From: a virus
Length of the DNA stretch: 64,000 nucleotides
Strand: one strand, 5' to 3'
IMG/VR virus record: IMGVR_UViG_3300023313_000005
Span: 11,554-75,553 of that record
The notes below the pieces were generated by a model. It saw only the letters and a list, made by a program, of their open reading frames with translations, made no database searches and was not told the origin of the DNA. Positions within the stretch are counted from its first letter, which is position 1. Each line of letters opens with the position of its first letter. The translations under genes were made by a program, and so were the position numbers. Below, in pieces: positions 21,182-46,314 of this stretch.

Positions 21182-22987
21182 TTAAAATAAAGTTAATTGT
21201 TTATTTTCAATTACGTTTATAATTTTATAACATTCTCTAATATAATAATTCATATTTATATTTTTTAAATAATTAATATTACTATCATAGTCATTTAATA
21301 TTGTAACATTAAAACCTGATTCAATAGCTTCTATACGTCCATCTTCGTGGTGTTTATACAATGAATTATTACTATTGGATATAATATATCTATTTGTTTT
21401 TTGTAATCGTTTATACCCCTTTAAAGTGTGTAATATAGTAGCCCATCCTTTAGTAGCTGTAAAACTTTTACAAAAATCAAATATGTTACATTCATTTAAT
21501 GATTGTTCTATTGGAATAGATTTTAAAAAATAATTACTAATTGCGATTCTTACTGCTTTCATAGAATGATTTTTATGCCAATCTCTTTCTATTTCAAAAG
21601 CACCTTTATATTTTATTTTGTTATCAATTGTACAAGCTATATAATTATTTACATCACGTATTATCATTTGTTTATAATTAACATATTCTAATTCTAAATT
21701 AGTTAATTTTTCCCATGATTTACATATTTGTATACATTTATTATATTCAGATTTTGGTAATAATATTGTTAATCCATCTGTATTAATTTGTAACATTGTT
21801 ACATCATATAATAAATCTACTATTTTTTCAGAAAGCATTGTTAATAATAACTGACCATTAATAGTAATGTTCATTGTAAATAATGGGTCATATAAAAAAC
21901 TATATTCACTATTAGATTTACCAAAAGATCCATTTAACGCAATTTTAATTACATAATTCTGAGGAGTACCTTTTTTAAATGTTTTTCTTATTTCATATTG
22001 TTGTTTATATATTTTACAAAATGCTAAACCTAAATGTTTAGGATAAAAATTATTACTAATAGCTAAGTTAGGATAATATGATTTTACATCAATATCTAAA
22101 ATCATATGAGTATTAGAATTAGAGTATCTTCCGGGTGAAATACAACCATGAATTCCTCCTGTACCAAATTCATATTTAAAATTTTTATATATTACATTTA
22201 AATTTTTAAATACTCCTTTTGTTTCGGTAATAATTTTATTTTTAAGAATTGATAGAAAATTGTTAAATTCTTTACTTGAATATTTAACATAAGGTAATAT
22301 ACAATCTTTTAATTTAATTTCTTTTCTATATGTACGTAATTGATTAATTGTTGATATACTAGTATTTAATTCTTCAGATAATAGTTTTTTAAAAATACTT
22401 TCACCTATACCTGCATCAGGTTTATTTAATACATTTATATTATATATTTTGCTAATTTCTTTTCTTAACTCAATTACAGGTAACGATTTTAAATAAAATT
22501 CATATGTTGAATCTACATCATTTATGCAATATTTTATTATATCAGGTATTTGGTGTTTTTCTATAATAGCATCGGGCGATAATGGTAAATCTTGAACTTT
22601 TTTCCAACGTAATGCTATTTGTATTTTTTTCAAACTAGTACGTTTGGCTTTATTATCAAAATGCCAAATTTTATATAAATCTATTTGAGGAATAATTACT
22701 TCTGATTCATATATTGATGAATATTTACTATTTATTATTTCTTTACTTTTATTATATAATCCTTTTATATTTCTTGTTTTTATTAAATAATGTAATAAAG
22801 GATAATCATAATTAATATTATTAAATCCTATTAATTGAATATCAGATAATAAAAATTTTATATATTCATCAAAGTCATTTTTACTGTCATGTAATATAAA
22901 TATTTTAGTTTCTTTAGTTTTTATATTAAAGAATATACCACAGTGGAAATTTTTAAATTGTTCTAAATCATATATATAAGTATCCAT
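21182..22987 (-). CDS. polB: Family B DNA polymerase (crAss-like)
   Basis: Exonuclease motifs YDLE, GFNNINYD and YCINDV; polymerase motifs DVKSYYP, KIALNGSFGK and QINTDG. Confidence 0.9.
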   Translation of the reverse strand: MDTYIYDLEQFKNFHCGIFFNIKTKETKIFILHDSKNDFDEYIKFLLSDIQLIGFNNINYDYPLLHYLIKTRNIKGLYNKSKEIINSKYSSIYESEVIIPQIDLYKIWHFDNKAKRTSLKKIQIALRWKKVQDLPLSPDAIIEKHQIPDIIKYCINDVDSTYEFYLKSLPVIELRKEISKIYNINVLNKPDAGIGESIFKKLLSEELNTSISTINQLRTYRKEIKLKDCILPYVKYSSKEFNNFLSILKNKIITETKGVFKNLNVIYKNFKYEFGTGGIHGCISPGRYSNSNTHMILDIDVKSYYPNLAISNNFYPKHLGLAFCKIYKQQYEIRKTFKKGTPQNYVIKIALNGSFGKSNSEYSFLYDPLFTMNITINGQLLLTMLSEKIVDLLYDVTMLQINTDGLTILLPKSEYNKCIQICKSWEKLTNLELEYVNYKQMIIRDVNNYIACTIDNKIKYKGAFEIERDWHKNHSMKAVRIAISNYFLKSIPIEQSLNECNIFDFCKSFTATKGWATILHTLKGYKRLQKTNRYIISNSNNSLYKHHEDGRIEAIESGFNVTILNDYDSNINYLKNINMNYYIRECYKIINVIENKQLTLF

Positions 22988-22999
22988 GTTTAAAATAAG

Positions 23000-23019
23000 A
23001 AAGGGGAATTACCCCCTTT
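23000..23019 (-). terminator. Probable intrinsic terminator
   Basis: AAAGGGG-AATTAC-CCCCTTT hairpin. Confidence 0.55.
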
Positions 23020-23076
23020 CTGTTTAAGTTAAATTAATAATTCATACACATTAAAATTAAAGAACATGTACGTTCT

Positions 23077-23364
23077 TTAATCTTTTCTTTTTTTTATTTT
23101 AATATTATGAATACGTGAACATACTCTTAAAAATGAAACATCGTCATCCTCAATCCAATATTTTATTAATAGTCTAGATTGTTTACTACTAATATGAAAA
23201 ATATTACTTAATTTTAATATTAATATATAATCATCTAATTTAGAATTATTATCTATGTAATTCCAAATTTCATCAGGATAAAATCGTATTTCTGAATAAT
23301 GATTATAGTAATAAATTAAATATAGTATTGCTATTAATAAAAAAGTTATAATTATTCCAATCAT
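23077..23364 (-). CDS. Small membrane-anchored protein; probable start MIGIIITF
   Basis: N-terminal hydrophobic helix. Confidence 0.55.
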   Translation of the reverse strand: MIGIIITFLLIAILYLIYYYNHYSEIRFYPDEIWNYIDNNSKLDDYILILKLSNIFHISSKQSRLLIKYWIEDDDVSFLRVCSRIHNIKIKKRKD

Positions 23365-23384
23365 TAATTTATTGTTTTTTATGT

Positions 23385-23429
23385 TTAATAAATTACATTT
23401 AAATAAAATTTTAATTTTGTATCTATCAT
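23385..23429 (-). pseudogene. Truncated terminal MID unit (MIDTKLKFYLNVIY*)
   Basis: Full junction motif AATATATTATGATAGATAC but only 14 codons. Confidence 0.55.
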
Positions 23430-23438
23430 AATATATTT

Positions 23439-23675
23439 TTATAATGAATTGAGTTCTTTCCATTTTCCCATAGACATAGACCCTTTATAACTATATTTTA
23501 ATCCGTATCCACTTCCCCAATTAGTACCTTTTCCACTTCCCTCTCCAGACCCATTCCCTATTCCGCCTGTTGAACAACATCCACTACCATCCATATATCT
23601 ATGTGTATAAAGATATTCTATATTATTCATATCTATAAGTATATTGTCTAATCTATCTATTGTAAAATCTATCAT
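23439..23675 (-). CDS. Array A peptide 18 (MIDFTIDRL)
   Basis: MID start, Gly-rich core. Confidence 0.75.
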   Translation of the reverse strand: MIDFTIDRLDNILIDMNNIEYLYTHRYMDGSGCCSTGGIGNGSGEGSGKGTNWGSGYGLKYSYKGSMSMGKWKELNSL

Positions 23676-23683
23676 ATTATTTT

Positions 23684-23941
23684 TTAATAAATTGAACTAT
23701 CTAAAATTAAAAATTCATTCCCAGTTCCAAGATCATGTCCCGTCCTTTCACTTTCACCATAATCTGCTATGTATAAATTTTCATGCTGAGTATTTACTAA
23801 ACTACAATCTATCCATCCTCCGTATTTATTTCCTCCACCTGTTCCGTGTCCCATAGAATTAATTTTTGGTGCGGTAGAACTTAAAAATAATACCCCTCTA
23901 GGATAACATTCCCCATAATCATTAATATTATAATCTATCAT
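23684..23941 (-). CDS. Array A peptide 17 (MIDYNINDYG)
   Basis: MID start, ATGA overlap. Confidence 0.75.
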   Translation of the reverse strand: MIDYNINDYGECYPRGVLFLSSTAPKINSMGHGTGGGNKYGGWIDCSLVNTQHENLYIADYGESERTGHDLGTGNEFLILDSSIY

Positions 23942-24192
23942 AATATACTAATTTCTTCTCCTTTTCCGATATCATAATGATAAATATATTTATCATTATA
24001 TGTACTTTCATATCCACATCCATATTTAGTTTCGTACGTGCATTGTATATATCCTAACCCACACCCATTTCCATTTTTCTCTCCATACTCAGATGAATTT
24101 CCACTTCCGTGCCCATTTCCATATCTATAACCTTGTCCATTTCCTCTTCCCCCATGTCCCGTTCCTTTATTATTAAGTCTTGTATCTATCAT
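23938..24192 (-). CDS. Array A peptide 16 (MIDTRLNNKG)
   Basis: MID...IL, Gly-rich. Confidence 0.8.
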   Translation of the reverse strand: MIDTRLNNKGTGHGGRGNGQGYRYGNGHGSGNSSEYGEKNGNGCGLGYIQCTYETKYGCGYESTYNDKYIYHYDIGKGEEISIL

Positions 24193-24386
24193 AATATATT
24201 TATATATTCATGTCCACATCCTTTTTCATCTATATATCCTATTCCATATCCACTTCCATATCCATCTTTTATTCCCTTTCCTAATCTATCTCCACCATCA
24301 TCTCCCACTCCTTGTCCATATCCATACCCATTGGCATTCCCGAATTCATACCAATTTCCATTATTATTAATATTATAATCTACCAT
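24189..24386 (-). CDS. Array A peptide 15 (MVDYNINNNG)
   Basis: MVD...IL, Gly-rich. Confidence 0.8.
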   Translation of the reverse strand: MVDYNINNNGNWYEFGNANGYGYGQGVGDDGGDRLGKGIKDGYGSGYGIGYIDEKGCGHEYINIL

Positions 24387-24685
24387 AATATATTGTTTAT
24401 ATATTCACATCCATCTCCATATCCACTTTCATGATTGTTTCCATATCCATTTCCGCACCCTTTTCTACAGCTATATCCATATCCATTTCCAAGTCCATCT
24501 CCATCTCCACATCCGTATCCTTTTCCATATCCTTTCCCATTTCCATATCCATTTCCATTTCCATCTCCATCTCCAAGTCCATCTCCATCTCCATCTCCAA
24601 ACCAATGCCTATATTTATTTCTATTACTATTTCCACATACTATTCTATATCCTTTTTCATTAATATCAAGTGTTGCGTCAATCAT
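24380..24685 (-). CDS. Array A peptide 14 (MIDATLDINEKG)
   Basis: MID...ILW, Gly-rich. Confidence 0.8.
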   Translation of the reverse strand: MIDATLDINEKGYRIVCGNSNRNKYRHWFGDGDGDGLGDGDGNGNGYGNGKGYGKGYGCGDGDGLGNGYGYSCRKGCGNGYGNNHESGYGDGCEYINNILW

Positions 24686-24921
24686 AATATATCAATTTCA
24701 TTTCCATTTCCGTTAATATATTTATTTATATAGTCATATACATAACCATATCCGTATCCATATCCATTTTCATTATTATCATTATTTTCTTCTCCGTATC
24801 CTTCTCCGTAATCATCCCCATAACCGTCTCCATGTCCACCTCCATATCCATGTCCTTTTTTATATCCAACATCATCAGAGAATATATAACATCCCCTATT
24901 ATTATATTCTATATCTATCAT
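24682..24921 (-). CDS. Array A peptide 13 (MIDIEYNNRG)
   Basis: MID...IL, Gly-rich. Confidence 0.8.
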   Translation of the reverse strand: MIDIEYNNRGCYIFSDDVGYKKGHGYGGGHGDGYGDDYGEGYGEENNDNNENGYGYGYGYVYDYINKYINGNGNEIDIL

Positions 24922-24924
24922 AAT

Positions 24925-25158
24925 TTATAAAACAAAAGGTTCTTTCCATTTCCCACGGTTATATCTATTCAATCCTATATTTTCACCATCTCCGACTCCT
25001 TGTCCATTACCTTTTCCACATTTATCTCCCCATCCACTACCTTCTCCACGTCCATTACCTTGACCATATTTATTACCTACTCTTATATCATAATGCATTC
25101 CATTATCAATTAAATGTGATTTTTTATATCCATTATCATTATATTTTGTATCTATCAT
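24925..25158 (-). CDS. Array A peptide 12 (MIDTKYNDNG)
   Basis: MID...VL, Gly-rich. Confidence 0.8.
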   Translation of the reverse strand: MIDTKYNDNGYKKSHLIDNGMHYDIRVGNKYGQGNGRGEGSGWGDKCGKGNGQGVGDGENIGLNRYNRGKWKEPFVL

Positions 25159-25295
25159 AATATATCATTTTCATACCCGTCCCCATACCCGGTTTCATTG
25201 TCATGTCCATCTTCACCACCATCTCCATGCCCATATTCATTTCCAAACCCATTTTCATATTCTATTCTATTATTAGTAAATGCTGTATCTATCAT
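25155..25295 (-). CDS. Array A peptide 11 (46 aa, MIDTAFTNNRIEY...ENDIL), not in the ORF track
   Basis: Manual translation; ATGA overlaps at both ends. Confidence 0.8.
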   Translation of the reverse strand: MIDTAFTNNRIEYENGFGNEYGHGDGGEDGHDNETGYGDGYENDIL

Positions 25296-25525
25296 AATGC
25301 GTTATTTTCATATCTTATTCCATAATTATTATATTTATAATTATATTCCTCTCCTCCACCATGTTTATTTCCATATCCATTCGCATGTCCTTTTCCATAC
25401 CCATTTCCGTCTTCAAATCCATATCCACTTCCTTCTCTATATCCCCCTCCTTCTCCATTTCTATATCCTATTTCATGTCCTATTTTATGTCCTGTTCCAA
25501 TATTATTAAAATTTACATCTATCAT
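25292..25525 (-). CDS. Array A peptide 10 (MIDVNFNNIG); start corrected from 25573
   Basis: The MID start overlaps the upstream stop. Confidence 0.8.
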   Translation of the reverse strand: MIDVNFNNIGTGHKIGHEIGYRNGEGGGYREGSGYGFEDGNGYGKGHANGYGNKHGGGEEYNYKYNNYGIRYENNAL

Positions 25526-25785
25526 GATATAGTATTTACATATCCGTAACCATTTCCATCTCCATATCCGCATCCATCTATATATCCGTATCCATTTGCA
25601 TATCCATATCCGTATCCTTTCCCATTTTCATATCCGTCCCCACATCCATATCCATTAATATCCCCATCCCCATTTCCATATCCATATCCATATCCATATC
25701 CATGTTTACTCTCACATCCGTGTCCTTTTCCGTATCCGTATCCTATTCCACTATCATTATTATTATTAAATTTTACATCTATCAT
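25522..25785 (-). CDS. Array A peptide 9 (MIDVKFNNNN)
   Basis: MID start, GY repeats. Confidence 0.8.
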   Translation of the reverse strand: MIDVKFNNNNDSGIGYGYGKGHGCESKHGYGYGYGYGNGDGDINGYGCGDGYENGKGYGYGYANGYGYIDGCGYGDGNGYGYVNTIS

Positions 25786-25961
25786 AATACATCGTTTATA
25801 TCCTCATTTCTATCGTTTCCGTATCCATCTCCACATCCATTCCCGTATCCATCCCCATATCCATATCCATATCCACTTCCATTTCTATCTCCTTGCCCAT
25901 ATTCGTATCCTCTTCCATATCCATATTCTATTCCGATATTACTAAAATTTGTATCTATCAT
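25782..25961 (-). CDS. Array A peptide 8 (59 aa, MIDTNFSNIGIEY...DINDVL), not in the ORF track
   Basis: Manual translation; ATGA overlaps at both ends. Confidence 0.8.
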   Translation of the reverse strand: MIDTNFSNIGIEYGYGRGYEYGQGDRNGSGYGYGYGDGYGNGCGDGYGNDRNEDINDVL

Positions 25962-26176
25962 AATATACGAATTTCTATTCCTATTCCATTTCTATTTTCA
26001 TGATTATATTCTTCTCCAAACATAAATCTTTTTCCAAATCCTTTTTTGAGTTCACTATCATACCATTTTGTATTTTCACTCCATTTTCCAAGTCTAGTAC
26101 TATATCCTGTTCCAGATTCCTCCCCTAATCTTTCTAAATAACTAAATCCCTTATTGTTAAAAGTTCTATCTATCAT
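25958..26176 (-). CDS. Array A peptide 7 (MIDRTFNNKG)
   Basis: MID...IL. Confidence 0.8.
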   Translation of the reverse strand: MIDRTFNNKGFSYLERLGEESGTGYSTRLGKWSENTKWYDSELKKGFGKRFMFGEEYNHENRNGIGIEIRIL

Positions 26177-26343
26177 AGTATAGTATAATTATTTCCATTC
26201 CCTTCTCCATATTCATTACCATGTCCTCCACCATGTCCGTGACCATACCCATTTCCATAATTATCTCCACATGACAATCCATATTTTATTTCAAATGTTA
26301 TTCCATATCCATTTCCATCAGTATTGATATTCATATCTATCAT
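26173..26343 (-). CDS. Array A peptide 6 (56 aa, MIDMNINTDG...YTIL), not in the ORF track
   Basis: Manual translation; ATGA overlaps at both ends. Confidence 0.8.
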   Translation of the reverse strand: MIDMNINTDGNGYGITFEIKYGLSCGDNYGNGYGHGHGGGHGNEYGEGNGNNYTIL

Positions 26344-26552
26344 AATATATCATTTATTTTTTCATAACTATGTCCATATCTATATCCATTTCCTTTACCA
26401 TATCCATTCCCATTTCCACATCCATTTTTATAATCGTCCCCATTTCTACTTCCGGATCCATATCCATATCCTCTTCCGTCTCCATAGCCATTTCCAAATC
26501 CAGATCCGTATCCATATCCAACACCATTAATATTAAGTTTTGTATTTATCAT
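26340..26552 (-). CDS. Array A peptide 5 (MINTKLNING)
   Basis: Gly-rich, ends INDIL. Confidence 0.8.
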   Translation of the reverse strand: MINTKLNINGVGYGYGSGFGNGYGDGRGYGYGSGSRNGDDYKNGCGNGNGYGKGNGYRYGHSYEKINDIL

Positions 26553-26565
26553 AGTACATAAATTT

Positions 26566-26844
26566 TTATTCTATATATATATCATCTCCTATACCATATC
26601 CATCTCCCGCACCATTCTTATATCCTTTCCCATTTCCATATATATTTCCTTTTCCATTTCCACATCCATTCCCGTCTCCACATCCATTTTTATCTCCATA
26701 TCCACATCCATTTCCAAACCCATTCCCGTACCCTATTCCATTTTCAGACTCGCTTCCATATCCATATCCTAATTTACTTCCATACCCATACCCTTCTCCA
26801 TATTCGTATTCTATTCCGGTATTGTTAAAATATGTATCTATCAT
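26566..26844 (-). CDS. Array A peptide 4 (MIDTYFNNTG)
   Basis: MID start, Gly-rich. Confidence 0.8.
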   Translation of the reverse strand: MIDTYFNNTGIEYEYGEGYGYGSKLGYGYGSESENGIGYGNGFGNGCGYGDKNGCGDGNGCGNGKGNIYGNGKGYKNGAGDGYGIGDDIYIE

Positions 26845-27041
26845 AATATATTATTTTTATCTCCATATCCATAACCATGTCCATTTCCATTTCCATTTCC
26901 ATATTTCTTTCCGTATTCATATGTATTTCCATACCCATATGCATTTCCTTTTCCATAATTATATCCAGTATTAGAACTATATCCATCTCCAAATCCATTT
27001 CTATATTCTATTCCAGTATTATTAAAACTTGTGTCTATCAT
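26841..27041 (-). CDS. Array A peptide 3 (MIDTSFNNTG)
   Basis: MID...IL. Confidence 0.8.
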   Translation of the reverse strand: MIDTSFNNTGIEYRNGFGDGYSSNTGYNYGKGNAYGYGNTYEYGKKYGNGNGNGHGYGYGDKNNIL

Positions 27042-27265
27042 AGTATATCATTTATACATCCATATCCACTTCCATCCTCATATCCATTTCCATCCCCACA
27101 TCCTTCTCCGTATCCATTTCCGTTTCCGTATTCATTGCCATATCCATTTCCATCCCCATTTTCATTTCCACATCCATTTCCGTACCCATATCCGTATCCT
27201 ATTCCATTTTCATATCCATATTCATCTTCACCATATCCATTAATATTAAGTTTTGTATCTATCAT
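27038..27265 (-). CDS. Array A peptide 2 (MIDTKLNING)
   Basis: MID...INDIL. Confidence 0.8.
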   Translation of the reverse strand: MIDTKLNINGYGEDEYGYENGIGYGYGYGNGCGNENGDGNGYGNEYGNGNGYGEGCGDGNGYEDGSGYGCINDIL

Positions 27266-27459
27266 AATATATTTTCATTTCCGCGTCCATACCCATATCC
27301 GTATCCATCTCCATTTCCTTGTCCATGTCCATGTCCATATCCCCCATATCCATTTCCGTGTCCCCTTCCATCTCCATTTCCATGTCTATTCCCAGATCCA
27401 TATTGACTATCATAACTGATTTTATGATGTCCTGTACTATTAAAATATATATCTATCAT
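27262..27459 (-). CDS. Array A peptide 1 (MIDIYFNSTG)
   Basis: MID...IL. Confidence 0.8.
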   Translation of the reverse strand: MIDIYFNSTGHHKISYDSQYGSGNRHGNGDGRGHGNGYGGYGHGHGQGNGDGYGYGYGRGNENIL

Positions 27460-27473
27460 AACTCATAAAATTA

Positions 27474-27499
27474 AAAGGGGAGATATTACTCTCCCCTTT
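27474..27499 (-). terminator. Terminator-like hairpin immediately upstream of array A
   Basis: AAAGGGGAGA-TATTAC-TCTCCCCTTT, a 10-bp stem followed by a T-rich tract on the minus strand. Confidence 0.7.
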
Positions 27500-27525
27500 A
27501 TTTGACTAAAATTTAGTGCATTGAC

Positions 27526-27933
27526 TTAAAGATTAATAGCAGTCTGAGCTTCACGTTCTCGGATTTGGTCTTCCATTTTCTGAATAATAGCATCTATGCT
27601 CTCTGCAGACTTAGATGATATCTTCCAATAAGGAATAGTAGAGAATTGTTCAACTGCCTCATCAGTCATTCTAATAACTTCTATGGCAGTCATACTATTT
27701 TGAATTACAGGCATTGTAAATTCACATTCAGAGGGTTTACTAGAACCTAAAGTAGCTAATTCTGATAGAGTATGAGCTCCTGCCCAAGACCTAATTCTTC
27801 TTGTTTTTTGGAGTGTTACATACATTCCATTTTTGGTATCTTTAACATTTACTAATTTACCAAAATGTACTCCTGCAGAGTATGTTCTTACAATTACTTG
27901 TTCGCCTAAATCTGGATGATTTGTGTTTTCCAT
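27526..27933 (-). CDS. Uncharacterised phage protein with a VIVRTYSAGVHFG motif
   Basis: VIVRTYSAGVHFG...RRIRSWAGA.TLSELA...IEVI pattern, recalled from small uncharacterised phage proteins. Confidence 0.75.
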   Translation of the reverse strand: MENTNHPDLGEQVIVRTYSAGVHFGKLVNVKDTKNGMYVTLQKTRRIRSWAGAHTLSELATLGSSKPSECEFTMPVIQNSMTAIEVIRMTDEAVEQFSTIPYWKISSKSAESIDAIIQKMEDQIREREAQTAINL

Positions 27934-27952
27934 GGTTTTTGTTTATTAATTA

Positions 27953-28219
27953 TTAATCAATTGAGTTCATCATTTTTTTAGTTACAGGATTATATTCCTG
28001 TTGTACTATTTTTATTACACATGGGGTATCTTCACTTGTTTTTACAGTAAAGTGATGACCATGCTCCACAATAACAGCCCCATTAGGTTCCAGAACTACT
28101 GTACCCATTTTTTCAAACTTCTTAATTACTTTTACATCAGTAGATTTCTTTAAATCCACATAATGTTCTCCATTACTGTGCTCCAGAATCAATTTCTGAT
28201 TTTCTTGTTCTGTATTCAT
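27953..28219 (-). CDS. Small His-motif protein, copy A (HGHH...QQEYNP)
   Basis: Paralog of 33951-34178. Confidence 0.8.
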   Translation of the reverse strand: MNTEQENQKLILEHSNGEHYVDLKKSTDVKVIKKFEKMGTVVLEPNGAVIVEHGHHFTVKTSEDTPCVIKIVQQEYNPVTKKMMNSID

Positions 28220-28235
28220 TTGTTTGTTTTTATGC

Positions 28236-28997
28236 TCAAGATTGAGCGGTTAATAATTCAAAATATGATTTTTTAGACATATGTATAGGATCTTCATTAG
28301 GTAAAGGTACTATTTTCTTATCCATTTCAAATAAGAATACATCTCCTTGACGTATAATACTTTTAATATGACCTTCCATAGATGGATAATACATACATAA
28401 ACTAGCAACTGCTTCTAAAGGAGATCCATTTTTAAAATGTTCAGGTACCCATAACCAATGTTCGTCATTAGTACTAGTACAATGACATCTAATTACAGGT
28501 ACTATAGGATCTTCTACTGCATCAGGATCTTGTAATTTTGTAATATCCACATGCCATAGTTCATACATTACATGATAATCTATTTCCTCCATCTTATCTA
28601 ATGTTTCATTATATACCCTATTGATAAGATGTTCTCCTTCAGTTTTTATTCTTTCTGAAGGTAAATTATCCATCATCTCTCTAATAGAAATAACTCCAAA
28701 TAAAGCAGCTCTATAGTTGCTATTTTTAATGCTAAATGCCTCTTGATAGGTATATTTATCAAAAGCATCCCAATAAGCCATTAATCCCTCTATATAAGCG
28801 GCTTCTTCAAATTCCCCATAAGTACAAATATCTTCAATCATAGGATCAAAGAATCTGGATTTAGCCCGTTTAAAATTATCATTGTACTTTGTTTTTAAAA
28901 ATCTTATGATTGTAGGATCTTTTAAGGTAGCATTATTCACCTGAAAAGTTTTACTCTCTGAGTAGTACGTAATACCTTCAATTGGTAATGTTTTCAT
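28236..28997 (-). CDS. CxC/RQGDV 'LTAQS' protein, copy A
   Basis: Paralog of 34183-35001 (CHCTSTNDEHWLWV, RQGDVF, YFELLTAQS). Confidence 0.8.
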   Translation of the reverse strand: MKTLPIEGITYYSESKTFQVNNATLKDPTIIRFLKTKYNDNFKRAKSRFFDPMIEDICTYGEFEEAAYIEGLMAYWDAFDKYTYQEAFSIKNSNYRAALFGVISIREMMDNLPSERIKTEGEHLINRVYNETLDKMEEIDYHVMYELWHVDITKLQDPDAVEDPIVPVIRCHCTSTNDEHWLWVPEHFKNGSPLEAVASLCMYYPSMEGHIKSIIRQGDVFLFEMDKKIVPLPNEDPIHMSKKSYFELLTAQS

Positions 28998-29030
28998 AAT
29001 TAATTAATCTGTTTGTGTTTATATCTGTAT

Positions 29031-29273
29031 TTATTTTTGTAAAATACCAAAAGAATCTCCGTTTCCTTTTGAAGTTGATAAATTTAATATTATTCCAGTT
29101 CCTACATCAGATTCATATTCAAGTCTATGTATATTTCCTTTTCCATTTCCTTTACCATCACCAATTCCTATCCCATCACCATCACCATATCCAGTTCCTT
29201 GGTTATATCCTAAACTATCTATTAATGAATCTAAACCTCCACGTCCAGTTTTTTTAAATTTATAATCTATCAT
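29031..29273 (-). CDS. Outlying MID Gly-rich peptide (MIDYKFKKTG)
   Basis: Same start motif and Gly-rich core as array A. Confidence 0.7.
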   Translation of the reverse strand: MIDYKFKKTGRGGLDSLIDSLGYNQGTGYGDGDGIGIGDGKGNGKGNIHRLEYESDVGTGIILNLSTSKGNGDSFGILQK

Positions 29274-29463
29274 TATTAAATGTAATAACTATTTTTTCTA
29301 TTCCATATCCAGGTCTAGATATTTGTTCTTTGCATTCGTTATTTAAATCATGTGTAACTGAAGCTTCAATTATAATATTTCTGATAATTTTATGTTGACT
29401 CACATAATAAGAAACTTCAGAATCTACAAAACTTCCGAAATTAGTAAAGTTTATATCTATCAT
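29260..29463 (-). CDS. Outlying diverged MID peptide (MIDINFTNFG); start corrected from 29505
   Basis: Junction TGTATATTATGATAGAT. Confidence 0.6.
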   Translation of the reverse strand: MIDINFTNFGSFVDSEVSYYVSQHKIIRNIIIEASVTHDLNNECKEQISRPGYGIEKIVITFNNDRL

Positions 29464-29473
29464 AATATACATA

Positions 29474-29611
29474 TTATTTTTGAGTACGTAATCTTTCCAC
29501 CTCATTCTCCATTACCTGAAGTAACTTCTGAAGTTGGTTGTACGTTGGTAGGTCGTTGTAAGATAGTGATAATTCCACACCATCTCTTTCAAAGGTTATC
29601 TTGTTTTTCAT
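29474..29611 (-). CDS. Hypothetical 45-aa protein (MKNKITFERDG)
   Basis: Manual translation; fills the gap on the coding strand. Confidence 0.5.
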   Translation of the reverse strand: MKNKITFERDGVELSLSYNDLPTYNQLQKLLQVMENEVERLRTQK

Positions 29612-29647
29612 TCTATAACTCTTTTGTCATTACATCTAAGTTTGAGA

Positions 29648-29905
29648 CTACACAAGCTCAAAATACCTCTCAAATTCCCAAACAACCCAATCTCTTTTAC
29701 TTCTTGATAGCTTTGATTTTTTCTGTTGGATTAATTCGTATTCTTTCACAATATCAACCGATAACATTTGTTTTGACCTTTTATCATAAAAGTCAGTAAA
29801 ACCAAAAGCGGCACTCATAGTTAATATAGTTGTCATTGTTTTACTTATCGGTTTCCTTTTTGGGAGTTCTCTTTCCCTGTATTTCAATCCGTTTATTTCT
29901 ATCAT
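29648..29905 (-). CDS. Hypothetical protein
   Basis: 85-aa coupled ORF. Confidence 0.65.
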   Translation of the reverse strand: MIEINGLKYRERELPKRKPISKTMTTILTMSAAFGFTDFYDKRSKQMLSVDIVKEYELIQQKKSKLSRSKRDWVVWEFERYFELV

Positions 29906-30102
29906 TTCACAACTCTTTTAATATTTCCTCTATTTATTAATTCTTGACATTCTTCAAGAGTTCCTTGACAATCAATAAATTCTATATGTTTTACTCTCCA
30001 TGCAAAATATCCATCTGTTTTTAAATCCCTAAATCTATTAGGAAATCTACTTACTTGGATTCCGAATTTACCATTTTCAAATTCTACTATTCTTGGTTTC
30101 AT
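29902..30102 (-). CDS. Hypothetical protein
   Basis: 66-aa ORF with an A-rich initiation region. Confidence 0.6.
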   Translation of the reverse strand: MKPRIVEFENGKFGIQVSRFPNRFRDLKTDGYFAWRVKHIEFIDCQGTLEECQELINRGNIKRVVK

Positions 30103-30112
30103 TTGTTTTGTT

Positions 30113-30289
30113 TTAATATTTTAAATCTTCTGTAATTATATCTATAACTACCATTAATAATACTATAAATAATACTACCCGAATCCGAAACAATGTATCT
30201 AAATCTGTTATATTTATATCATTTTTGAGGAATATTACAAGAATTAGAGAAATTCCTACTACTGATAGGTATTTGATTAGTTTTTTCAT
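30113..30289 (-). CDS. Small two-TM membrane protein (58 aa, MKKLIKYLSVVG)
   Basis: Manual translation; paralog of 30294-30467. Confidence 0.7.
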   Translation of the reverse strand: MKKLIKYLSVVGISLILVIFLKNDINITDLDTLFRIRVVLFIVLLMVVIDIITEDLKY

Positions 30290-30293
30290 CTTA

Positions 30294-30467
30294 TTAATCT
30301 ATATCTTTTGTTATTACAGCTGTGAGGATTATAAATAGCGCTGTAAATGCTATCATTGCAAATCTATCAAAAGGAGATGATTCCATTATATTAGTGTCAC
30401 CTTTGATGAATATTATAAGAAGTAAGGTAAGCCCTACTACTGATAGGTATTTGATTAGCTTTCTCAT
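30294..30467 (-). CDS. Small two-TM membrane protein (57 aa, MRKLIKYLSVVG)
   Basis: Manual translation; ATGA overlap with the upstream gene. Confidence 0.7.
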   Translation of the reverse strand: MRKLIKYLSVVGLTLLLIIFIKGDTNIMESSPFDRFAMIAFTALFIILTAVITKDID

Positions 30468-30736
30468 TCCTTTTTGTCTTTAATGAATACTTTTAATGTT
30501 CTTCCCTCGTCTTGTAAACTCAACTCTACTTCGCAATGCTTGTTTTTGTTTACGTATTTTCTGCCTTTCGGGTCTATCACCTCTACTCTGGTGACTTCGC
30601 TTAATTCTACTAGCGTTCCTTTCACCACCCAATCTTCAAAGCCGTCAAACTCCGCACAGCTTCTTTCCATTTCTTCCAACTCCTCCTCTGTGACTAGACG
30701 AAGTTCGTTGTCTGATAGTTCAATTAGTATCTTCAT
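30464..30736 (-). CDS. Hypothetical protein
   Basis: 90-aa ORF. Confidence 0.65.
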   Translation of the reverse strand: MKILIELSDNELRLVTEEELEEMERSCAEFDGFEDWVVKGTLVELSEVTRVEVIDPKGRKYVNKNKHCEVELSLQDEGRTLKVFIKDKKE

Positions 30737-30883
30737 TTTGTTTTGTTTTTTAAACTAACACGTTGTATGTGGTCTGAACGTCTTGACAAGCATAATAATA
30801 AATGTCTGCAGTTCCCGTTCGTGTTGCCTCATATTAACATTGTTTATACGCCATGCTGCGCACGGGCGCATACACGGGTGTTA

Positions 30884-31183
30884 TCAACAAGGTGGTTTGC
30901 ACCATTCTTTTACTATCATATTTTCAAAGTTGTATTTCCAGCAATTATCATTTTCCCACCATTCATTAATTCCGTATTTACCATTTTCGTATTTAACAAA
31001 CACTTGTTTGTCATCAGTAGGTAAGGCATCTTTAATCGCTACCCAATTGCTAATATGTGGTATAGATAATTGCTCTATACAGTGGTTTATTAATTCGTGT
31101 AAAGTCCAGTAACTATCGCAGTTGTTGTCTATTTTTTCAACTGGGTTTATTCCCATTTCTTCTAATAATTTTCTTGTTGTCAT
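30884..31183 (-). CDS. Small phage protein with a DUF551-like C-terminus
   Basis: NWVAIKDALP...VKEW. Confidence 0.55.
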   Translation of the reverse strand: MTTRKLLEEMGINPVEKIDNNCDSYWTLHELINHCIEQLSIPHISNWVAIKDALPTDDKQVFVKYENGKYGINEWWENDNCWKYNFENMIVKEWCKPPC

Positions 31184-31195
31184 TTTGGTTTTATT

Positions 31196-31441
31196 TTAAA
31201 GTTCAACTCTTTTTTTGTAGTAAATCTCGTCCGTGATTCCATCCTCCAACTCTATCACTAAGACAATGTCCTCACCCCTTTCCTCTCTGGTCACAGAAAG
31301 CACCCCCACATCTTCACTGATTAGCCGCCCGTCCAATGTTTCCACGATGGTGGGCATATCTATTATCTGATCTCGCTTGAAGTGCTCCTCGTGGAAGACT
31401 ACTCCGTCTGTGGTTATTCGTTTGTATGGGCTTATATCCAT
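31196..31441 (-). CDS. Hypothetical protein
   Basis: 81-aa ORF. Confidence 0.6.
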   Translation of the reverse strand: MDISPYKRITTDGVVFHEEHFKRDQIIDMPTIVETLDGRLISEDVGVLSVTREERGEDIVLVIELEDGITDEIYYKKRVEL

Positions 31442-31959
31442 GATGATTTTTCAATTAATTCCTTATGGAATTCTGCAAACTTTTTTGCTCTTTTTTTTGT
31501 TGGGAAAGCAAGGAATGATATTTTATCGCGTGTTTCTAGAATCTCATAACTTGGCTCCCCACAAATAGGTAGTATTATAGATTTAGCTGTTTTATCGTAC
31601 CATTCTAAATTCTTTTCTTCTTCCCAATTTGGACTCCAATCTCCATTATAATCAGCTACCAATTGGGATAGCATGGCTTTGGCAATACTAGCTTCTGCTT
31701 GCTTTCTTGTTTTGAATATATTACCATCATTATCAGTTCTGCGTGGAATACCTATTGGATAAATATTACTAAAAGCATCTATCCAATACCCTCCTACTTT
31801 TTCTAACTCTTCCCGAGTCTTTAATTTCCCTTCTTGTGGCTCTTCCTTGAGTGTCTTTAACACCCTCTCCAATTCTGGAATATCTTTTTTTGAAACTGTG
31901 ATTTTGACTGTGTCGGTATTCAATTCTGTTACTTTCATGTTATTTGTTTTTGATTGCAT
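31432..31959 (-). CDS. Hypothetical phage protein
   Basis: 175-aa ORF with YNGDWSPNW motif. Confidence 0.65.
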   Translation of the reverse strand: MQSKTNNMKVTELNTDTVKITVSKKDIPELERVLKTLKEEPQEGKLKTREELEKVGGYWIDAFSNIYPIGIPRRTDNDGNIFKTRKQAEASIAKAMLSQLVADYNGDWSPNWEEEKNLEWYDKTAKSIILPICGEPSYEILETRDKISFLAFPTKKRAKKFAEFHKELIEKSSWI

Positions 31960-32527
31960 TTTCTAAATGTAAAAAGTACGCTTTATATGCTTTGTACATT
32001 GCTTCTATTCTGATAAATTCTTCTGTACCTCTTTTTGTTTCAAATTCGTCATCACCCTTAAACCATTCATCCCATTGTTCAATAGTTTTGCATTCACATC
32101 CAATTTTTATTTTATTATTCACTATACCAAAACTCCATTTTGAGTAAATAGGCATAATTGCATTACTTATATCTGCTCTACGAAGGTTTACCCCGTCAAA
32201 GTTTACTCCACGAAGGTCTGATTCACGAAGGTCTGCTTCATCGAGGATTGATTCACAAAGGTTTGCTCCACGAAGGTCTGCTCTGTAAAGGTTTGCTCCA
32301 CGAAAATCTACTCTACGAAGGTTGGTTTCATAAAGATTTGCTCCACGAAGGTTAGCTTCATAAAAGTTGGCTTCAAAAAGGTTGGCTCCACAAAAATTTG
32401 CTTCAAAAAGATTGGCCCCATGAAAGTCTGCCCCACGGAGGTCAGCTCTACGCAAGTAGGCTCCTATTAATGTATCGCCTTCAATTTCTTTTAATACTTT
32501 TCCGTTAAAATCTTTAATTTGTATCAT
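31940..32527 (-). CDS. Pentapeptide repeat protein
   Basis: A(D/N)(L/F)xx repeats; C-terminal IKIGC...W domain. Confidence 0.9.
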   Translation of the reverse strand: MIQIKDFNGKVLKEIEGDTLIGAYLRRADLRGADFHGANLFEANFCGANLFEANFYEANLRGANLYETNLRRVDFRGANLYRADLRGANLCESILDEADLRESDLRGVNFDGVNLRRADISNAIMPIYSKWSFGIVNNKIKIGCECKTIEQWDEWFKGDDEFETKRGTEEFIRIEAMYKAYKAYFLHLENAIKNK

Positions 32528-32582
32528 GACTTTTTGATTACATTTTTTAATGTAATAAATATATCAACAATATTTATTTATA

Positions 32583-32735
32583 TTACAATTCATAACTTAA
32601 TATATGTTTATATTTAATATGAGTATAAGGCGTAAACATTGAATTAAATTTATTTGCAATCATTATAGTAAATTTTAAATTTGGATAATCAAGTCTAGTA
32701 CGTGCTTTACAATCTTTGAGTATTACCAGTTTCAT
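32583..32735 (-). CDS. Array B peptide 9 (MKLVILKDCK...SYEL)
   Basis: Manual translation, 50 aa. Confidence 0.75.
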   Translation of the reverse strand: MKLVILKDCKARTRLDYPNLKFTIMIANKFNSMFTPYTHIKYKHILSYEL

Positions 32736-32881
32736 AGTTTATAAGTTTTTTTAGATTCGTATATAATATGACTATAGGGTAAATATACTGAATAATATCT
32801 AGTAGATATTATTATATTGTATGGTTCATTATAATAACTAATACTTTTTGCTTTACAATTTTTAAGTATAATTAATTTCAT
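32732..32881 (-). CDS. Array B peptide 8 (MKLIILKNCK...TYKL)
   Basis: Manual translation, 49 aa. Confidence 0.75.
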   Translation of the reverse strand: MKLIILKNCKAKSISYYNEPYNIIISTRYYSVYLPYSHIIYESKKTYKL

Positions 32882-33030
32882 AGCTCATAAAAATTTTTAG
32901 ATTTGTATCTAATACGACTATAAGGTAAATATAATGAATGATATGCATCAGATATTATTATATCATATGGCATAAAATATTGACTGAGTGTATTTATTGT
33001 TTTACAATCTCTAAATATTATTAACTTCAT
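32878..33030 (-). CDS. Array B peptide 7 (MKLIIFRDCK...FYEL)
   Basis: Manual translation, 50 aa. Confidence 0.75.
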   Translation of the reverse strand: MKLIIFRDCKTINTLSQYFMPYDIIISDAYHSLYLPYSRIRYKSKNFYEL

Positions 33031-33170
33031 GGCCAATAAAAGGTTATACTTTTATAATATATCTTAAAATAAGGAGTATAAAATATCTTATATCTAAAAT
33101 CTATATAAAGGTTAGAATCATCTGGTTTATTAGTATGAAATTCACAATTTTTAATTACAATTAGTCTCAT
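33027..33170 (-). CDS. Array B peptide 6 (MRLIVIKNCE...FYWP)
   Basis: Manual translation, 47 aa. Confidence 0.75.
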   Translation of the reverse strand: MRLIVIKNCEFHTNKPDDSNLYIDFRYKIFYTPYFKIYYKSITFYWP

Positions 33171-33307
33171 AAGTAATAAGTAGTTATAGTTTTAAATTTA
33201 ATTTTATAGCGAGAAAAACAAAATATATTATTTTGTAATACTATAGGGTAAGTTACGTATTTAAGTTCATTAGCTAGTTTACAGTCTTTAAGTGTTATTA
33301 GTTTCAT
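33167..33307 (-). CDS. Array B peptide 5 (MKLITLKDCK...TYYL)
   Basis: Manual translation, 46 aa. Confidence 0.75.
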   Translation of the reverse strand: MKLITLKDCKLANELKYVTYPIVLQNNIFCFSRYKIKFKTITTYYL

Positions 33308-33450
33308 ACCATATGAATTTTCATTTTTTCACCTTTTATACAAAAATTAAAAGTGTATAATGTTATAAATTGATAATCTAAAAGTACACTATAAAATATA
33401 GATGAATGATAATCATGTATTACACAATTTTTTATTATTATTAATCTCAT
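33304..33450 (-). CDS. Array B peptide 4 (MRLIIIKNCV...IHMV)
   Basis: Manual translation, 48 aa. Confidence 0.75.
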   Translation of the reverse strand: MRLIIIKNCVIHDYHSSIFYSVLLDYQFITLYTFNFCIKGEKMKIHMV

Positions 33451-33602
33451 AATTGATACATTTTACAATTTCCAAATTTTACATTTTTAATACTTATTAA
33501 TGCATATGAAGTAGTAGATACATGATATTTATAGCATATAAGATCTACAAAAGGTAAATATTGAGTAAAATCTTCATTTATAGGAATTACTATTAAATTC
33601 AT
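33447..33602 (-). CDS. Array B peptide 3 (MNLIVIPINE...MYQL)
   Basis: Manual translation, 51 aa. Confidence 0.75.
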   Translation of the reverse strand: MNLIVIPINEDFTQYLPFVDLICYKYHVSTTSYALISIKNVKFGNCKMYQL

Positions 33603-33748
33603 AACTCATATTTGTTAGAATAACTATACATAATACAAATATCACTTAGGTATAAAAGATAATTATTACTACATAGATCTGAATTTAATACAATATTTGA
33701 AATAGAAGAAGTAATATCGGCATATTTATTTAATAGTACTAAAGTCAT
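33599..33748 (-). CDS. Array B peptide 2 (MTLVLLNKYA...KYEL)
   Basis: Manual translation, 49 aa. Confidence 0.75.
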   Translation of the reverse strand: MTLVLLNKYADITSSISNIVLNSDLCSNNYLLYLSDICIMYSYSNKYEL

Positions 33749-33894
33749 AATTCATATCTATTAGAATATTTATATGTAATGCAAATATTACCTATATATA
33801 AAAGATAAATATCACTATATAGATCTGAAATTAACCTATCGTTTGATGAAAGCATAAAAATATCATCATATTTATTTAATATTACTAAAGTCAT
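33745..33894 (-). CDS. Array B peptide 1 (MTLVILNKYD...RYEL); start corrected from 33954
   Basis: 49 aa; close paralog of peptide 2. Confidence 0.75.
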   Translation of the reverse strand: MTLVILNKYDDIFMLSSNDRLISDLYSDIYLLYIGNICITYKYSNRYEL

Positions 33895-33912
33895 ATTTTG
33901 TTGTGTTGTAAT

Positions 33913-33943
33913 AAAAAGGTGCAGAGAATTTCCCCACACCTTT
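33913..33943 (-). terminator. Imperfect terminator-like hairpin upstream of array B
   Basis: AAAGGTG...CACCTTT inverted repeat with a T-tract on the minus strand. Confidence 0.45.
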
Positions 33944-33950
33944 AACCCTA

Positions 33951-34178
33951 TCAATCAAATGCATCCTGTAACATTTTAGTTACAGGGTTCAGCTCTTGTT
34001 GAGTATATTTAATGATGTTTTCACTTTCTGTTTTTAATGTCCCATGCTCGCCATGGGTTACTATTCCGTTACTACCTGTTTTGATGAGAAGAGCACCTTT
34101 ATACTCCTCACTAACAATGTCCCCTTTTACCTCTAAAGTATGAGGATGGGTAGACTTTTGAATTATTAATTTTTCCAT
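33951..34178 (-). CDS. Small His-motif protein, copy B (HPH...HGEH...QQELNP); start MEKLIIQK
   Basis: Paralog of 27953-28219. Confidence 0.8.
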   Translation of the reverse strand: MEKLIIQKSTHPHTLEVKGDIVSEEYKGALLIKTGSNGIVTHGEHGTLKTESENIIKYTQQELNPVTKMLQDAFD

Positions 34179-34182
34179 TATA

Positions 34183-35001
34183 TTAAGATTGTGCTGTGAG
34201 TAATCCAAAATACTCATCAGCTGTTAAACTTCTTTTTTTGGGGTTGTAAGATATTAAATCTTTTAGTTCTTCAATATCTTTATCATATTCTGTGATAAAA
34301 ACATCTCCTTGACGTTTTATCTCTTTGATGTAAGGAATAACTGATTCATGAAAGACTGCCGTAGATGCTATGGCTGTTAAAGCACTATTGTCTTCAGGTT
34401 TATTTACCCAAAGATAATGCTCTTCATTAGTAGTGGTACACCAGCACTTAACTACATATAGTTTATTAGTACTAAATTTAGTTCCATCAACTTCTAGTAA
34501 TTCATAAACTACATGGTAATCTTTCATACCGGTAAAATTACCTTCATAATCGAATGTTTTATGAGTTACTTCCTTACCTCCTACATCTATAGTAGTATAA
34601 CCCATACCCTCTATCAATTCTTTTACATCCAACAATTCAAATACTAAAATTTGAAAGGCATTATTTTTGATTTCGAATGCCTCTTTAAATGTTATAGGAG
34701 GAATATCCTCCCACATATCTAATAGTATCTCTACTTTAGACACACAACTTTTAAAAATGTTAGCACCTTCTATTTCTTCTCCTTCGGCTATTTTCTTGTC
34801 AATTTTTTCAGGGAGCTCTCGGAATTTGTTTATAATAGTATTTTCAAATTCTTTCTTAGTTCCCTTCAACTTATAATATTGGATAAGTTCTTTTTTTGTA
34901 ATACCTATCCAAATATCAGTTGTTGCCTCGTATTTTAATTCTGATGTTACCTCTATGATATGGAGGTTTTTTAACTTACGAAGTTTATTTTCATCTTTCA
35001 T
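34183..35001 (-). CDS. CxC/RQGDV 'LTAQS' protein, copy B
   Basis: CWCTTTNEEHYLWV, RQGDVF and YFGLLTAQS. Confidence 0.8.
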   Translation of the reverse strand: MKDENKLRKLKNLHIIEVTSELKYEATTDIWIGITKKELIQYYKLKGTKKEFENTIINKFRELPEKIDKKIAEGEEIEGANIFKSCVSKVEILLDMWEDIPPITFKEAFEIKNNAFQILVFELLDVKELIEGMGYTTIDVGGKEVTHKTFDYEGNFTGMKDYHVVYELLEVDGTKFSTNKLYVVKCWCTTTNEEHYLWVNKPEDNSALTAIASTAVFHESVIPYIKEIKRQGDVFITEYDKDIEELKDLISYNPKKRSLTADEYFGLLTAQS

Positions 35002-35020
35002 GTTTATTGAATTTTGGTTT

Positions 35021-45776: not shown

Positions 45777-46314
45777 GTTTGATACCAACTCTAACTTTTG
45801 GAAGATGAATCCCCAGTTTAAAATACTGGAGCCGTTTAAATCTTTATATATCAAAGATAAAACTGCGGGGAAGAAATACACTTCTAAAGTAATGTGGGCG
45901 GTAGCTTTTTTATTAGACCCTTCTAAGGATAACATTTACAGAAATGTCCCTACAGATGAACGTAAAGAACTCATCTGTAGGGATTTTTTAGGTTATTCTG
46001 TATCTAAATTCGATAAGTACCAAAATATAATGGATTTTTATAAAAAACAAGTTTTATCTCAAGCTGCTAAAAGTTTATTAGTATGGGAGGACATTATGAC
46101 AGATAGAGAAAAGACATTAAAAGGTATGTATAAAGAAGCATTAAAAAATAAAGATATTGATTTAATAGTCGAATTGGATAAATTATTAGCTACTACTCCT
46201 AAATATTATATGGATTATGATAAAATAAAAAAGACATTTTTAGAAGAAGAAGAATCCAATAATAGGGGTAAAGGGAATAGAGTCAAATCATTAACAGATA
46301 CAGGTGAGATCTAA
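45760..46314 (+). CDS. Probable terminase small subunit / packaging-associated protein
   Basis: Helical 184-aa protein overlapping the terL start. Confidence 0.5.
   Translation: MSVINKFDTNSNFWKMNPQFKILEPFKSLYIKDKTAGKKYTSKVMWAVAFLLDPSKDNIYRNVPTDERKELICRDFLGYSVSKFDKYQNIMDFYKKQVLSQAAKSLLVWEDIMTDREKTLKGMYKEALKNKDIDLIVELDKLLATTPKYYMDYDKIKKTFLEEEESNNRGKGNRVKSLTDTGEI

Follow-up and report, generated by a model that had tools for sequence, protein, structure and literature searches.

The analysed stretch (the window) comprises 64 kb of the single 75.5-kb contig of viral record IMGVR_UViG_3300023313_000005, and this report concerns array A, a tandem series of small open reading frames (ORFs) for glycine-rich peptides at 23439-27459 on the minus strand, together with the gene of the DUF6948 family (PF22253) that precedes it. 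The window is AT-rich (GC content 21-38%) and encodes a crAss-like portal protein, major capsid protein and large terminase; the major capsid protein is 39% identical to capsid proteins of Bacteroides crAss-like phages, and a family-B-like DNA polymerase and a GroEL gene are also encoded. The sole public run containing the array region is a microbial-mat metagenome, probably the source run, and in the Logan contigs, an independent assembly of that probable source run, the array is identical, the repeat stretch 24462-24640 being skipped in the comparison. No RNA run containing the region was found, and a small RNA run from the same sample contributed no sequence to it. Array A is located in an early or accessory region adjoining replication genes, where the minus-strand gene order is a 253-amino-acid (aa) hub gene, an 88-aa gene, the DUF6948 gene, a terminator-like hairpin and unit 1 of the array. 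The DUF6948 gene (27526-27933, minus strand, 135 aa, Pfam E 3.8e-19) lies 66 nucleotides (nt) upstream of the start of unit 1 (27459) on the same strand, and the terminator scan places the hairpin in this interval at 27474-27499, also on the minus strand. A second minus-strand terminator-like hairpin (22998-23021) is found downstream of the array and of a 128-aa ORF; terminator-like sites number 10 in the region against 0.8 expected. A sigma-70 promoter scan found 55 sites against 51 expected, which is the background level, and an Rfam scan of 22500-35500 found no family.

Array A is tiled by 18 consecutive ORFs of 46-101 aa, all on the minus strand and all starting with ATG. Unit 1 (27262-27459, 65 aa) has the head MIDIYFNSTG and an IL tail, and is followed through ATGA overlaps by unit 2 (27038-27265, 75 aa) and unit 3 (26841-27041, 66 aa). 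Unit 4 (26566-26844, 92 aa) ends in IYIE with a TAA stop, 13 nt before unit 5 (26340-26552, 70 aa), which has a MIN head. Next come unit 6 (26173-26343, 56 aa), unit 7 (25958-26176, 72 aa), unit 8 (25782-25961, 59 aa), unit 9 (25522-25785, 87 aa, with a TIS end and an ATGA overlap), unit 10 (25292-25525, 77 aa from its MID start, or 93 aa from an in-frame upstream ATG at 25573), unit 11 (25155-25295, 46 aa) and unit 12 (24925-25158, 77 aa), whose TAA stop is followed by a 3-nt gap. Unit 13 (24682-24921, 79 aa) leads to unit 14 (24380-24685, 101 aa), which ends in ILW with a TAG stop and overlaps unit 15 (24189-24386, 65 aa, MVD head) by 7 nt (ATGGTAG). The series closes with unit 16 (23938-24192, 84 aa), unit 17 (23684-23941, 85 aa) and unit 18 (23439-23675, 78 aa), the last with the divergent head MIDFTIDRLD. 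Two extra family members bring the total to 20: member 19 (29031-29273, minus strand, 80 aa) has the head MIDYKFKKTG and a Gly-X body and lies upstream of the hub gene, and member 20 (29260-29463, minus strand, 67 aa) has the head MIDINFTNFG and is not Gly-rich. No further members were found elsewhere in the genome. Of the 17 junctions within the array, 13 are exact ATGA overlaps; units 14 and 15 share the 7-nt overlap, short gaps separate units 4/5, 12/13 and 17/18, and the ATG-to-ATG distance is 2 modulo 3 at 15 of the 17. The 18 ORFs, the shared M-I-D head with its N and G positions and the 13 ATGA junctions had all been reported in an earlier note on this DNA, and a recount returned the same features. 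Such ATGA chaining is unusual, and array A is the largest among the loci compared, level with a 21-unit array at locus L029.

The head M-I-D is present in 18 of the 20 family members, the other two having MVD or MIN, and in the 20-member alignment it continues as x-x-(F/L/I/Y)-(N/D/S/T)-x-x-G. The body of the units is (Gly-X)n with Tyr, Asn or Asp between the glycines (Gly 26% overall); in 15 of the 18 units, alternating G-x runs span 13-65% of the length, whereas the alternation is lost from units 7, 17 and 20, which retain the head. Net negative charge is carried by 13 of the 18 units, and the product of a unit is a small, mostly acidic and probably disordered protein with a short hydrophobic head and a Gly-X body. 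The cores of different units are not reliably alignable; the best local nucleotide matches between units (at least 40 nt) are 82-91% identical over 40-62 nt, all in low-complexity sequence, and near-identical pairs are absent. Judged from these sequences, the units appear to be old copies. The best-conserved DNA of the array is instead found at positions -7 to +8 around each ATG (78-100% conserved), with A at -3 conserved at 94%. Only 5 of the 18 units are present as called proteins in public protein collections.

The sense frame of the array has no in-frame stop in 1,334 sense codons, against 36-186 stops in the other five frames; under independent shuffling of the three codon positions, about 105 stops were expected and the minimum in 2,000 shuffles was 82. 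Codon pairs in which an A/T swap would make a stop are fully one-sided (TAT:TAA 138:0, TGT:TGA 24:0), whereas harmless third-position A/T swaps are frequent (GAT:GAA 83:67, AAT:AAA 154:57), and G is concentrated at codon positions 1-2, position 3 having the usual composition of the genome. Open frames alone would be weak evidence of coding, because the cores are imperfect hexanucleotide repeats, with Tandem Repeats Finder periods nearly all multiples of 6 (6, 12, 18 and 24 nt); the shifted and antisense frames are also partly open, and in-frame indels alone are uninformative on selection because hexanucleotide slippage keeps the frame anyway. Units 7, 17 and 20 nevertheless remain open over 67-85 codons without any repeat, in very AT-rich DNA. 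Moreover, the glycine codon GGA accounts for 77% in the array as against 38% in the long genes of this phage, while comparable arrays use GGT at 99% (locus L026), GGT, GGA and GGC at 40, 36 and 21% (L029) or GGT at 89% (L058). The Gly-X frame is the only frame common to all lineages compared, and all compared arrays are oriented like their neighbouring genes. Since other lineages encode the same type of peptide with different glycine codons, the protein is what appears to be kept. Stop avoidance, the A/T codon asymmetry, the repeat-free open units and the lineages with other codons together establish that the array units are protein-coding, and they support selection at the protein level, as the earlier note had argued from frames kept open despite strong divergence.

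The C-terminal I-L that the earlier note had listed as usual occurs only at ATGA-overlapping units, being absent from the three non-overlapping units; a role as a conserved follower is not supported. The ATA-TTA codons for I-L also supply the -6 to -1 context of the next start, and arrays of other lineages end in GYGRG, GNGKG and similar tails, with spacers of 5-12 nt and without I-L. Because I-L tracks the ATGA overlap and is absent in relatives, it is best read as a phage-specific junction context of the next start codon rather than as a conserved follower peptide. In Bacteroidota, initiation is not known to be led by Shine-Dalgarno sequences, and A at -3 is favoured.

The DUF6948 gene gives the array a counterpart in other phages. 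A search for DUF6948 in IMG/VR returned at least 564 relatives, and the locus counts given here refer to the best 80. In 66 of these loci a (Gly-X)n ORF lies directly downstream on the same strand; it is usually present in one copy of 23-304 aa, with a composition of 44% G, 18% S, 12% Y and 11% D. Among the 14 loci without such an ORF, 4 extend no more than about 200 nt past the DUF6948 stop. Eleven contigs terminate inside the Gly-X repeat. In 54 of the 66 loci, the conserved Trp codon at the C-terminus of DUF6948 contributes its TG to the partner ATG, the preceding A completing the start codon, which results in a 13-nt overlap and a -1 frame relative to DUF6948; the codon before Trp in these overlapping loci is GTA, GAA, ATA, GCA, TCA or ACA, even in GC-rich phages. 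This overlap is not present in the window, where the 66-nt spacer with its hairpin takes its place, and it is likewise missing from the amplified arrays of L026 and L029. A Gly-X ORF was found in 0 of 25 polymerase-based loci and in 0 of 73 hub loci without DUF6948. Amplified arrays beside DUF6948 comprise 21 units in L029, 6 in L026, 3 in L111, and 2 each in L058 and L167. In addition, protein P0044 is a natural single-protein fusion of DUF6948 with a Gly-X tail. Because the coupling is conserved and this fusion exists, the Gly-X protein and the DUF6948 protein probably act together, and because the hub gene accompanies DUF6948 at only 4 of the 80 loci, the pair can be regarded as an autonomous module. 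Although the pair is visible in databases, no publication on DUF6948 or on the DUF6948/Gly-X pair was found in the literature.

A Gly-X partner of the same kind is carried by Ralstonia phage NK-7 (XCO36016 for DUF6948 and XCO36015 for the partner), where it is annotated as a 'fibroin heavy chain-like protein'. Another cultured carrier is Vibrio phage IKEMa6-1. In DUF6948 phages such as NK-7, the arrangement resembles that of the window: a barrel gene with 36-50% identity to the one here is followed on the same strand by a gene for a small Gly-X protein, in which every second residue is Gly and the intervening ones are Tyr, Ser, Asp or Asn. The partner is usually single there and starts within the 13-nt overlap, whereas the window has 18-20 diverged copies that are separated from DUF6948 by a hairpin and chained by ATGA; moreover, the head is MID..FN..G here as against ME.[VI]..G, and Asn replaces Ser as a major residue. 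Heads of other loci, namely MEVISNG (L058), MLIDGNG (L136) and MIIDFAG (L111), form a series between the common ME.[VI]..G and the MID..FN..G of the window, and these intermediates seem to link the two.

Searches outside this module returned little. A word-indexed profile and an exhaustive hidden Markov model (HMM) search with the 20-unit alignment returned only the window's own units and weak low-complexity matches, and a second phage with the MID head was not found in either search. A blastn comparison of 23000-28000 with 50,697 phage records yielded no match. All 27 loci obtained from IMG/VR with a double-junction DNA pattern were chance or unrelated matches, and the 25 loci related through the DNA polymerase (identity up to 46%) had no such arrays. 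Three further observations concern the partner gene elsewhere. At loci L105-L184 the Gly-X ORF lies in the -1 frame relative to DUF6948, its frame already reads open over the 3-100 codons that precede its ATG, and a -1 frameshift product with the barrel fused to the tail may be made there beside separate initiation. In Chlorobiaceae phage CV-1-33 (L186), an M/A/L ORF ('MAMAMA...') annotated at the partner position (2786-3031) is apparently the wrong frame of the Gly-X repeat. In L026 (8162-9568, minus strand), the antisense of the array is a single open ORF of 468 aa rich in His, Asn and Gln, which a gene caller could prefer.

The DUF6948 protein is predicted to have a strongly bent five-stranded Sm-type barrel, together with an extra C-terminal helix in this phage. 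The model is confident (predicted local distance difference test score, pLDDT, 93.8) and matches archaeal SmAP1 (1loj) in VIA with Z 7.8 and a root-mean-square deviation of 1.9 A over 68 residues, a Z below 8 being counted as moderate; the top 36 rows of the VIA list are all Sm/LSm-type domains, and Foldseek gave Sm/LSm with a probability of 1.00 and an E of about 0.01. Sequence searches of the PDB with the hub and DUF6948 proteins gave no match. In longer proteins, DUF6948 is a C-terminal domain behind Dam/Dcm methyltransferase, Lar, ParB-like, exonuclease or kinase domains, and these fusion partners hint at a nucleic-acid-related or anti-restriction setting.

Array A might be an uncoupled, tandemly amplified and diverged form of the (Gly-X)n partner gene of DUF6948, whose peptides work with the barrel; we hold this reading with about even confidence. 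The MID family would then be homologous to the single-copy partners, and a single partner gene would have been uncoupled from DUF6948, multiplied about 20-fold and chained by ATGA stop/start overlaps. The peptides might serve the Sm-like barrel as low-complexity tails that can detach, or as its clients; the head would dock on the barrel, and the Gly/Tyr/Asp body would give multivalent, nucleic-acid-competing or self-associating contacts early in infection. Such physical binding, and any role in the cell, is a proposal. Amplification would supply a large and varied peptide pool; the cores change through in-frame hexanucleotide slippage. The best guess at the function, a tentative one, is that the array provides the Sm-like protein with a stock of low-complexity partners, and about 20 diverged copies could be kept for quantity, variety or an arms race.

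Several observations weigh against this interpretation. Outside matches of the family profile are weak (best E 3.5e-9) and involve the low-complexity body but in no case the head, so that sequence cannot prove the MID family homologous to the single-copy partners. The terminator-like hairpin stands between DUF6948 and array A, and the two may therefore be expressed and act independently. Moreover, the Sm1/Sm2 motifs (Pfam LSM/Hfq) are absent from DUF6948, PF22253 being the only family matched at E <= 0.01, so RNA binding is drawn by analogy only. Locus L028 belongs to a DUF6948 lineage that has the hub and no Gly-X gene, and the GGA bias, with repeat periods in multiples of 6, indicates that DNA slippage shapes the cores.

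Among the other explanations, the units might be arms-race decoys or inhibitors that function without DUF6948, the acidic peptides titrating or masking a host defence sensor, protease or nucleic-acid-binding protein, with copy number and diversity driven by host counter-evolution. A precedent for such expansion is the amplification of poxvirus K3L, known as the 'genomic accordion'. The many copies that have diverged rather than homogenised would suit this explanation, as would the early or accessory position beside replication genes, the net negative charge of 13 of the 18 units, the hairpin that uncouples the array from DUF6948, and the fusions of DUF6948 elsewhere to domains typical of anti-restriction settings (Dam, Dcm, Lar and ParB-like). 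However, no PADLOC or anti-defence family was matched, no search aimed at one having been made, disordered repeats diverge fast even without selection, and in most phages the gene is present once and in tight coupling with DUF6948, which suggests that it acts as a partner; decoys are therefore regarded as unlikely, though still worth weighing.

On their own, the Gly/Tyr/Asn peptides might alternatively assemble into silk-, amyloid- or condensate-like material, such as a matrix or compartment during infection, which appears quite unlikely. The alternation of Gly with Tyr, Asn, Ser or Asp recalls silk (GX)n and the [G/S]Y[G/S] domains of the FUS type, and the fibroin-like annotation of the homologous gene in phage NK-7 agrees with this. 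The nearest ESM Atlas clusters all consist of small viral proteins with no Pfam assignment; of the closest clusters that do have one, a single cluster carries KRTAP on 16% of its members. The resemblance is purely compositional, though, the high net negative charge of many units disfavours aggregation, and no structural prediction speaks for assembly.

The earlier note had also proposed precursors of ribosomally synthesised and post-translationally modified peptides (RiPPs) with leader, core and follower. In such an array, a modifying enzyme would recognise the MID head as leader, the Gly/Cys/Tyr core would be modified and the IL follower removed. In its favour, the units resemble precursor sets such as the prochlorosins in being many small ORFs with a conserved N-terminus and variable Gly-rich cores, and some cores have Cys and Gly runs as in McbA of microcin B17. 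The conserved head, though, is only about 10 residues, and typical RiPP leaders are longer. The supposed follower tracks the ATGA junction and is missing in relatives, and many family members lack Cys, Ser or Thr patterns. No YcaO, radical-SAM, lanthionine-type or other RiPP-type enzyme family was found among ten array-flanking genes searched with Pfam, or among five of these genes, five of the peptides and ten long ORFs searched against PHROGs. An enzyme role is possible for the hub protein, which matches no known fold. The usual genomic partner of the Gly-X gene is an Sm-like barrel and not an enzyme. The leader/core/follower proposal is not supported, and a RiPP array is considered very unlikely. 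About 9 kb from the array, in the replication-side block, lies the only amidoligase-like ORF (13550-14893, PHROG 2443, E 1e-14) with no evident link to it.

Two repeat folds were rejected on periodicity. Polyglycine-II, which the earlier note had entertained and which is exemplified by snow-flea antifreeze proteins, has a G-x-x period of 3 and does not fit, because the glycine period here is 2 (6 nt of DNA). The RTX motif is a nonapeptide, GGxGxDxUx, with a periodic hydrophobic residue; RTX beta-roll repeats were rejected since the alignment and repeat table contain neither a nonapeptide period nor a periodic hydrophobic residue. Finally, a non-coding satellite or recombination repeat with open frames as a by-product of hexanucleotide repeats is barely credible: the micro-repeats of 6, 12, 18 and 24 nt, the biased GGA use, the partly open antisense and shifted frames, and comparable repeats in phiPLPE-like phages earlier taken as possible att sites (PMC3391216) would agree with it, but it is opposed by the stop-free sense frame as against 36-186 stops in every other frame, by the ATG, conserved head and stop of each unit, by repeat-free units that are still open, by the same peptide written in different codons across lineages, by start codons built on the DUF6948 Trp codon in 54 loci, and by the DUF6948/Gly-X fusion protein.

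If array A is the amplified partner of DUF6948, the nearest analogy for the pair would be Sm or Hfq proteins with Gly-rich or acidic disordered tails. The eukaryotic proteins SmB, SmD1 and SmD3 have RG tails. The Hfq of Acinetobacter has a Gly-rich C-terminus (PMC5663733). Likewise, the DUF6948 pair joins a small bent Sm-type beta-barrel to a Gly-rich disordered extension, in P0044 within one protein. The tail of DUF6948 differs from those of Sm, LSm and Hfq proteins in usually being a polypeptide of its own and in being acidic and rich in Tyr instead of Arg or Gln; DUF6948 is also without detected Sm1/Sm2 motifs, so a ring and RNA binding are suggested by analogy only.

As in other viral tandem amplifications, such as the MORN and ankyrin repeat gene arrays of giant viruses (PMC6418002), a lineage-specific accessory gene would have expanded into a diverged array; on related phage contigs, this hub gene adjoins arrays that encode small MORN_2 proteins. 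The units here differ in being of low complexity, 46-101 aa long and translationally chained. In the lpl cluster of Staphylococcus aureus, the best-conserved unit is reported to comprise an ORF 3' end, the junction and the next 5' end (PMC2568036), and conservation in array A is likewise centred on the junctions, from -7 to +8 around the ATG; the lpl cluster consists of lipoprotein genes with intergenic spacers, whereas array A consists of overlapping micro-ORFs. The nearest printed trace of such repeats is the (KMGCCG)35 repeat of Iodobacter phage phiPLPE, described as non-coding, GC-rich and a possible att site (PMC3391216, Table 3), a phage hexanucleotide repeat that is likewise readable as (Gly-X)n on one strand.

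Annotation mostly overlooks the (Gly-X)n gene: only 5 of the 18 units are called, the wrong frame is annotated in one GenBank phage and many contigs break in the repeat; gene callers systematically miss Gly-X genes. With its relatives in IMG/VR, DUF6948 plus Gly-X is nevertheless among the more widespread conserved two-gene modules in uncultured phages. Array A would illustrate the extent to which such a module can be remodelled, with a partner uncoupled, multiplied about 20-fold and diversified, which suggests either a need for quantity and variety of disordered protein or an arms race. It thereby offers a testable entry to the function of phage low-complexity proteins and of a phage Sm-like protein.

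The hub gene (28236-28997, minus strand, 253 aa) has the motifs CxCTSTN.EHWLW and RQGDVF, and its 88-aa partner follows at 27953-28219 on the same strand. Both have paralogs in the window, at 34183-35001 for the hub and 33951-34217 for the partner, with 35% identity each. The hub model is confident (pLDDT 90.6), and a fold search in the PDB gave nothing convincing (Foldseek E >= 0.08; VIA Z <= 5.0). The hub family has 138 relatives in IMG/VR, of which 79 loci were compared; DUF6948 lies beside the hub in 6 of the 79, and 5 of these 6 have Gly-X ORFs (lineages L026/27/34, L029 and L058). A small-ORF family of at least three members was found in 17 of the 79 hub loci, and in 1 of 25, 6 of 80 (2 of the 6 on hub-bearing contigs) and 0 of 27 control loci. 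The arrays adjacent to the hub are of Gly-X type, MORN_2 type (24 units in L032, at least 16 in L044, and also L039, L050, L052 and L054), YD-like (L031) or others, so the hub may be linked to the formation or use of small-ORF arrays. Protein P0039 fuses DUF6948 to the hub domain, with 40% and 44% identity to the two genes of the window; in L026 the hub and DUF6948 genes are 1 nt apart, and P0039 could be a real fusion or the result of a lost stop codon. A long shot would be that the Gly-X peptides are an interchangeable tail library for a phage Sm-like ring, with the hub and 88-aa pair as a previously unrecognised component that uses or promotes hypervariable micro-protein arrays, in a new phage system for remodelling host RNA/DNA metabolism or evading defence.

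A second array (32583-33954, minus strand) lies directly downstream of the paralogous hub and 88-aa pair. It comprises about 10 ATGA-chained ORFs of 46-52 aa, unrelated to array A, with heads MKLIILK.CK or MTLV.LNKY and tails Y.L, and one of its units had no match in Pfam or PHROG. Between the two hub/array modules lies a gene for a pentapeptide-repeat protein (31940-32527, PF00805, E 4e-33), a class that includes DNA mimics. Two adjacent paralogous ORFs for small membrane proteins of 57-58 aa (30113-30467) both start with M(K/R)KLIKYLSVVG. The 128-aa ORF between array A and the second terminator-like hairpin (23077-23463) has a hydrophobic segment and no family match; it overlaps the end of unit 18 by 25 nt, and its start is uncertain. 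Elsewhere in the window, a GroEL-type chaperonin gene (44006-45628, PHROG 5725, E 7e-135) closely precedes the genes for terminase and portal on their upstream side. The large terminase ORF (46304-49519) is 1,071 aa long and has two separate PHROG terminase matches (residues 164-519 and 609-1040), which may reflect an insertion, such as an intein or another domain, or an N-terminal extension.

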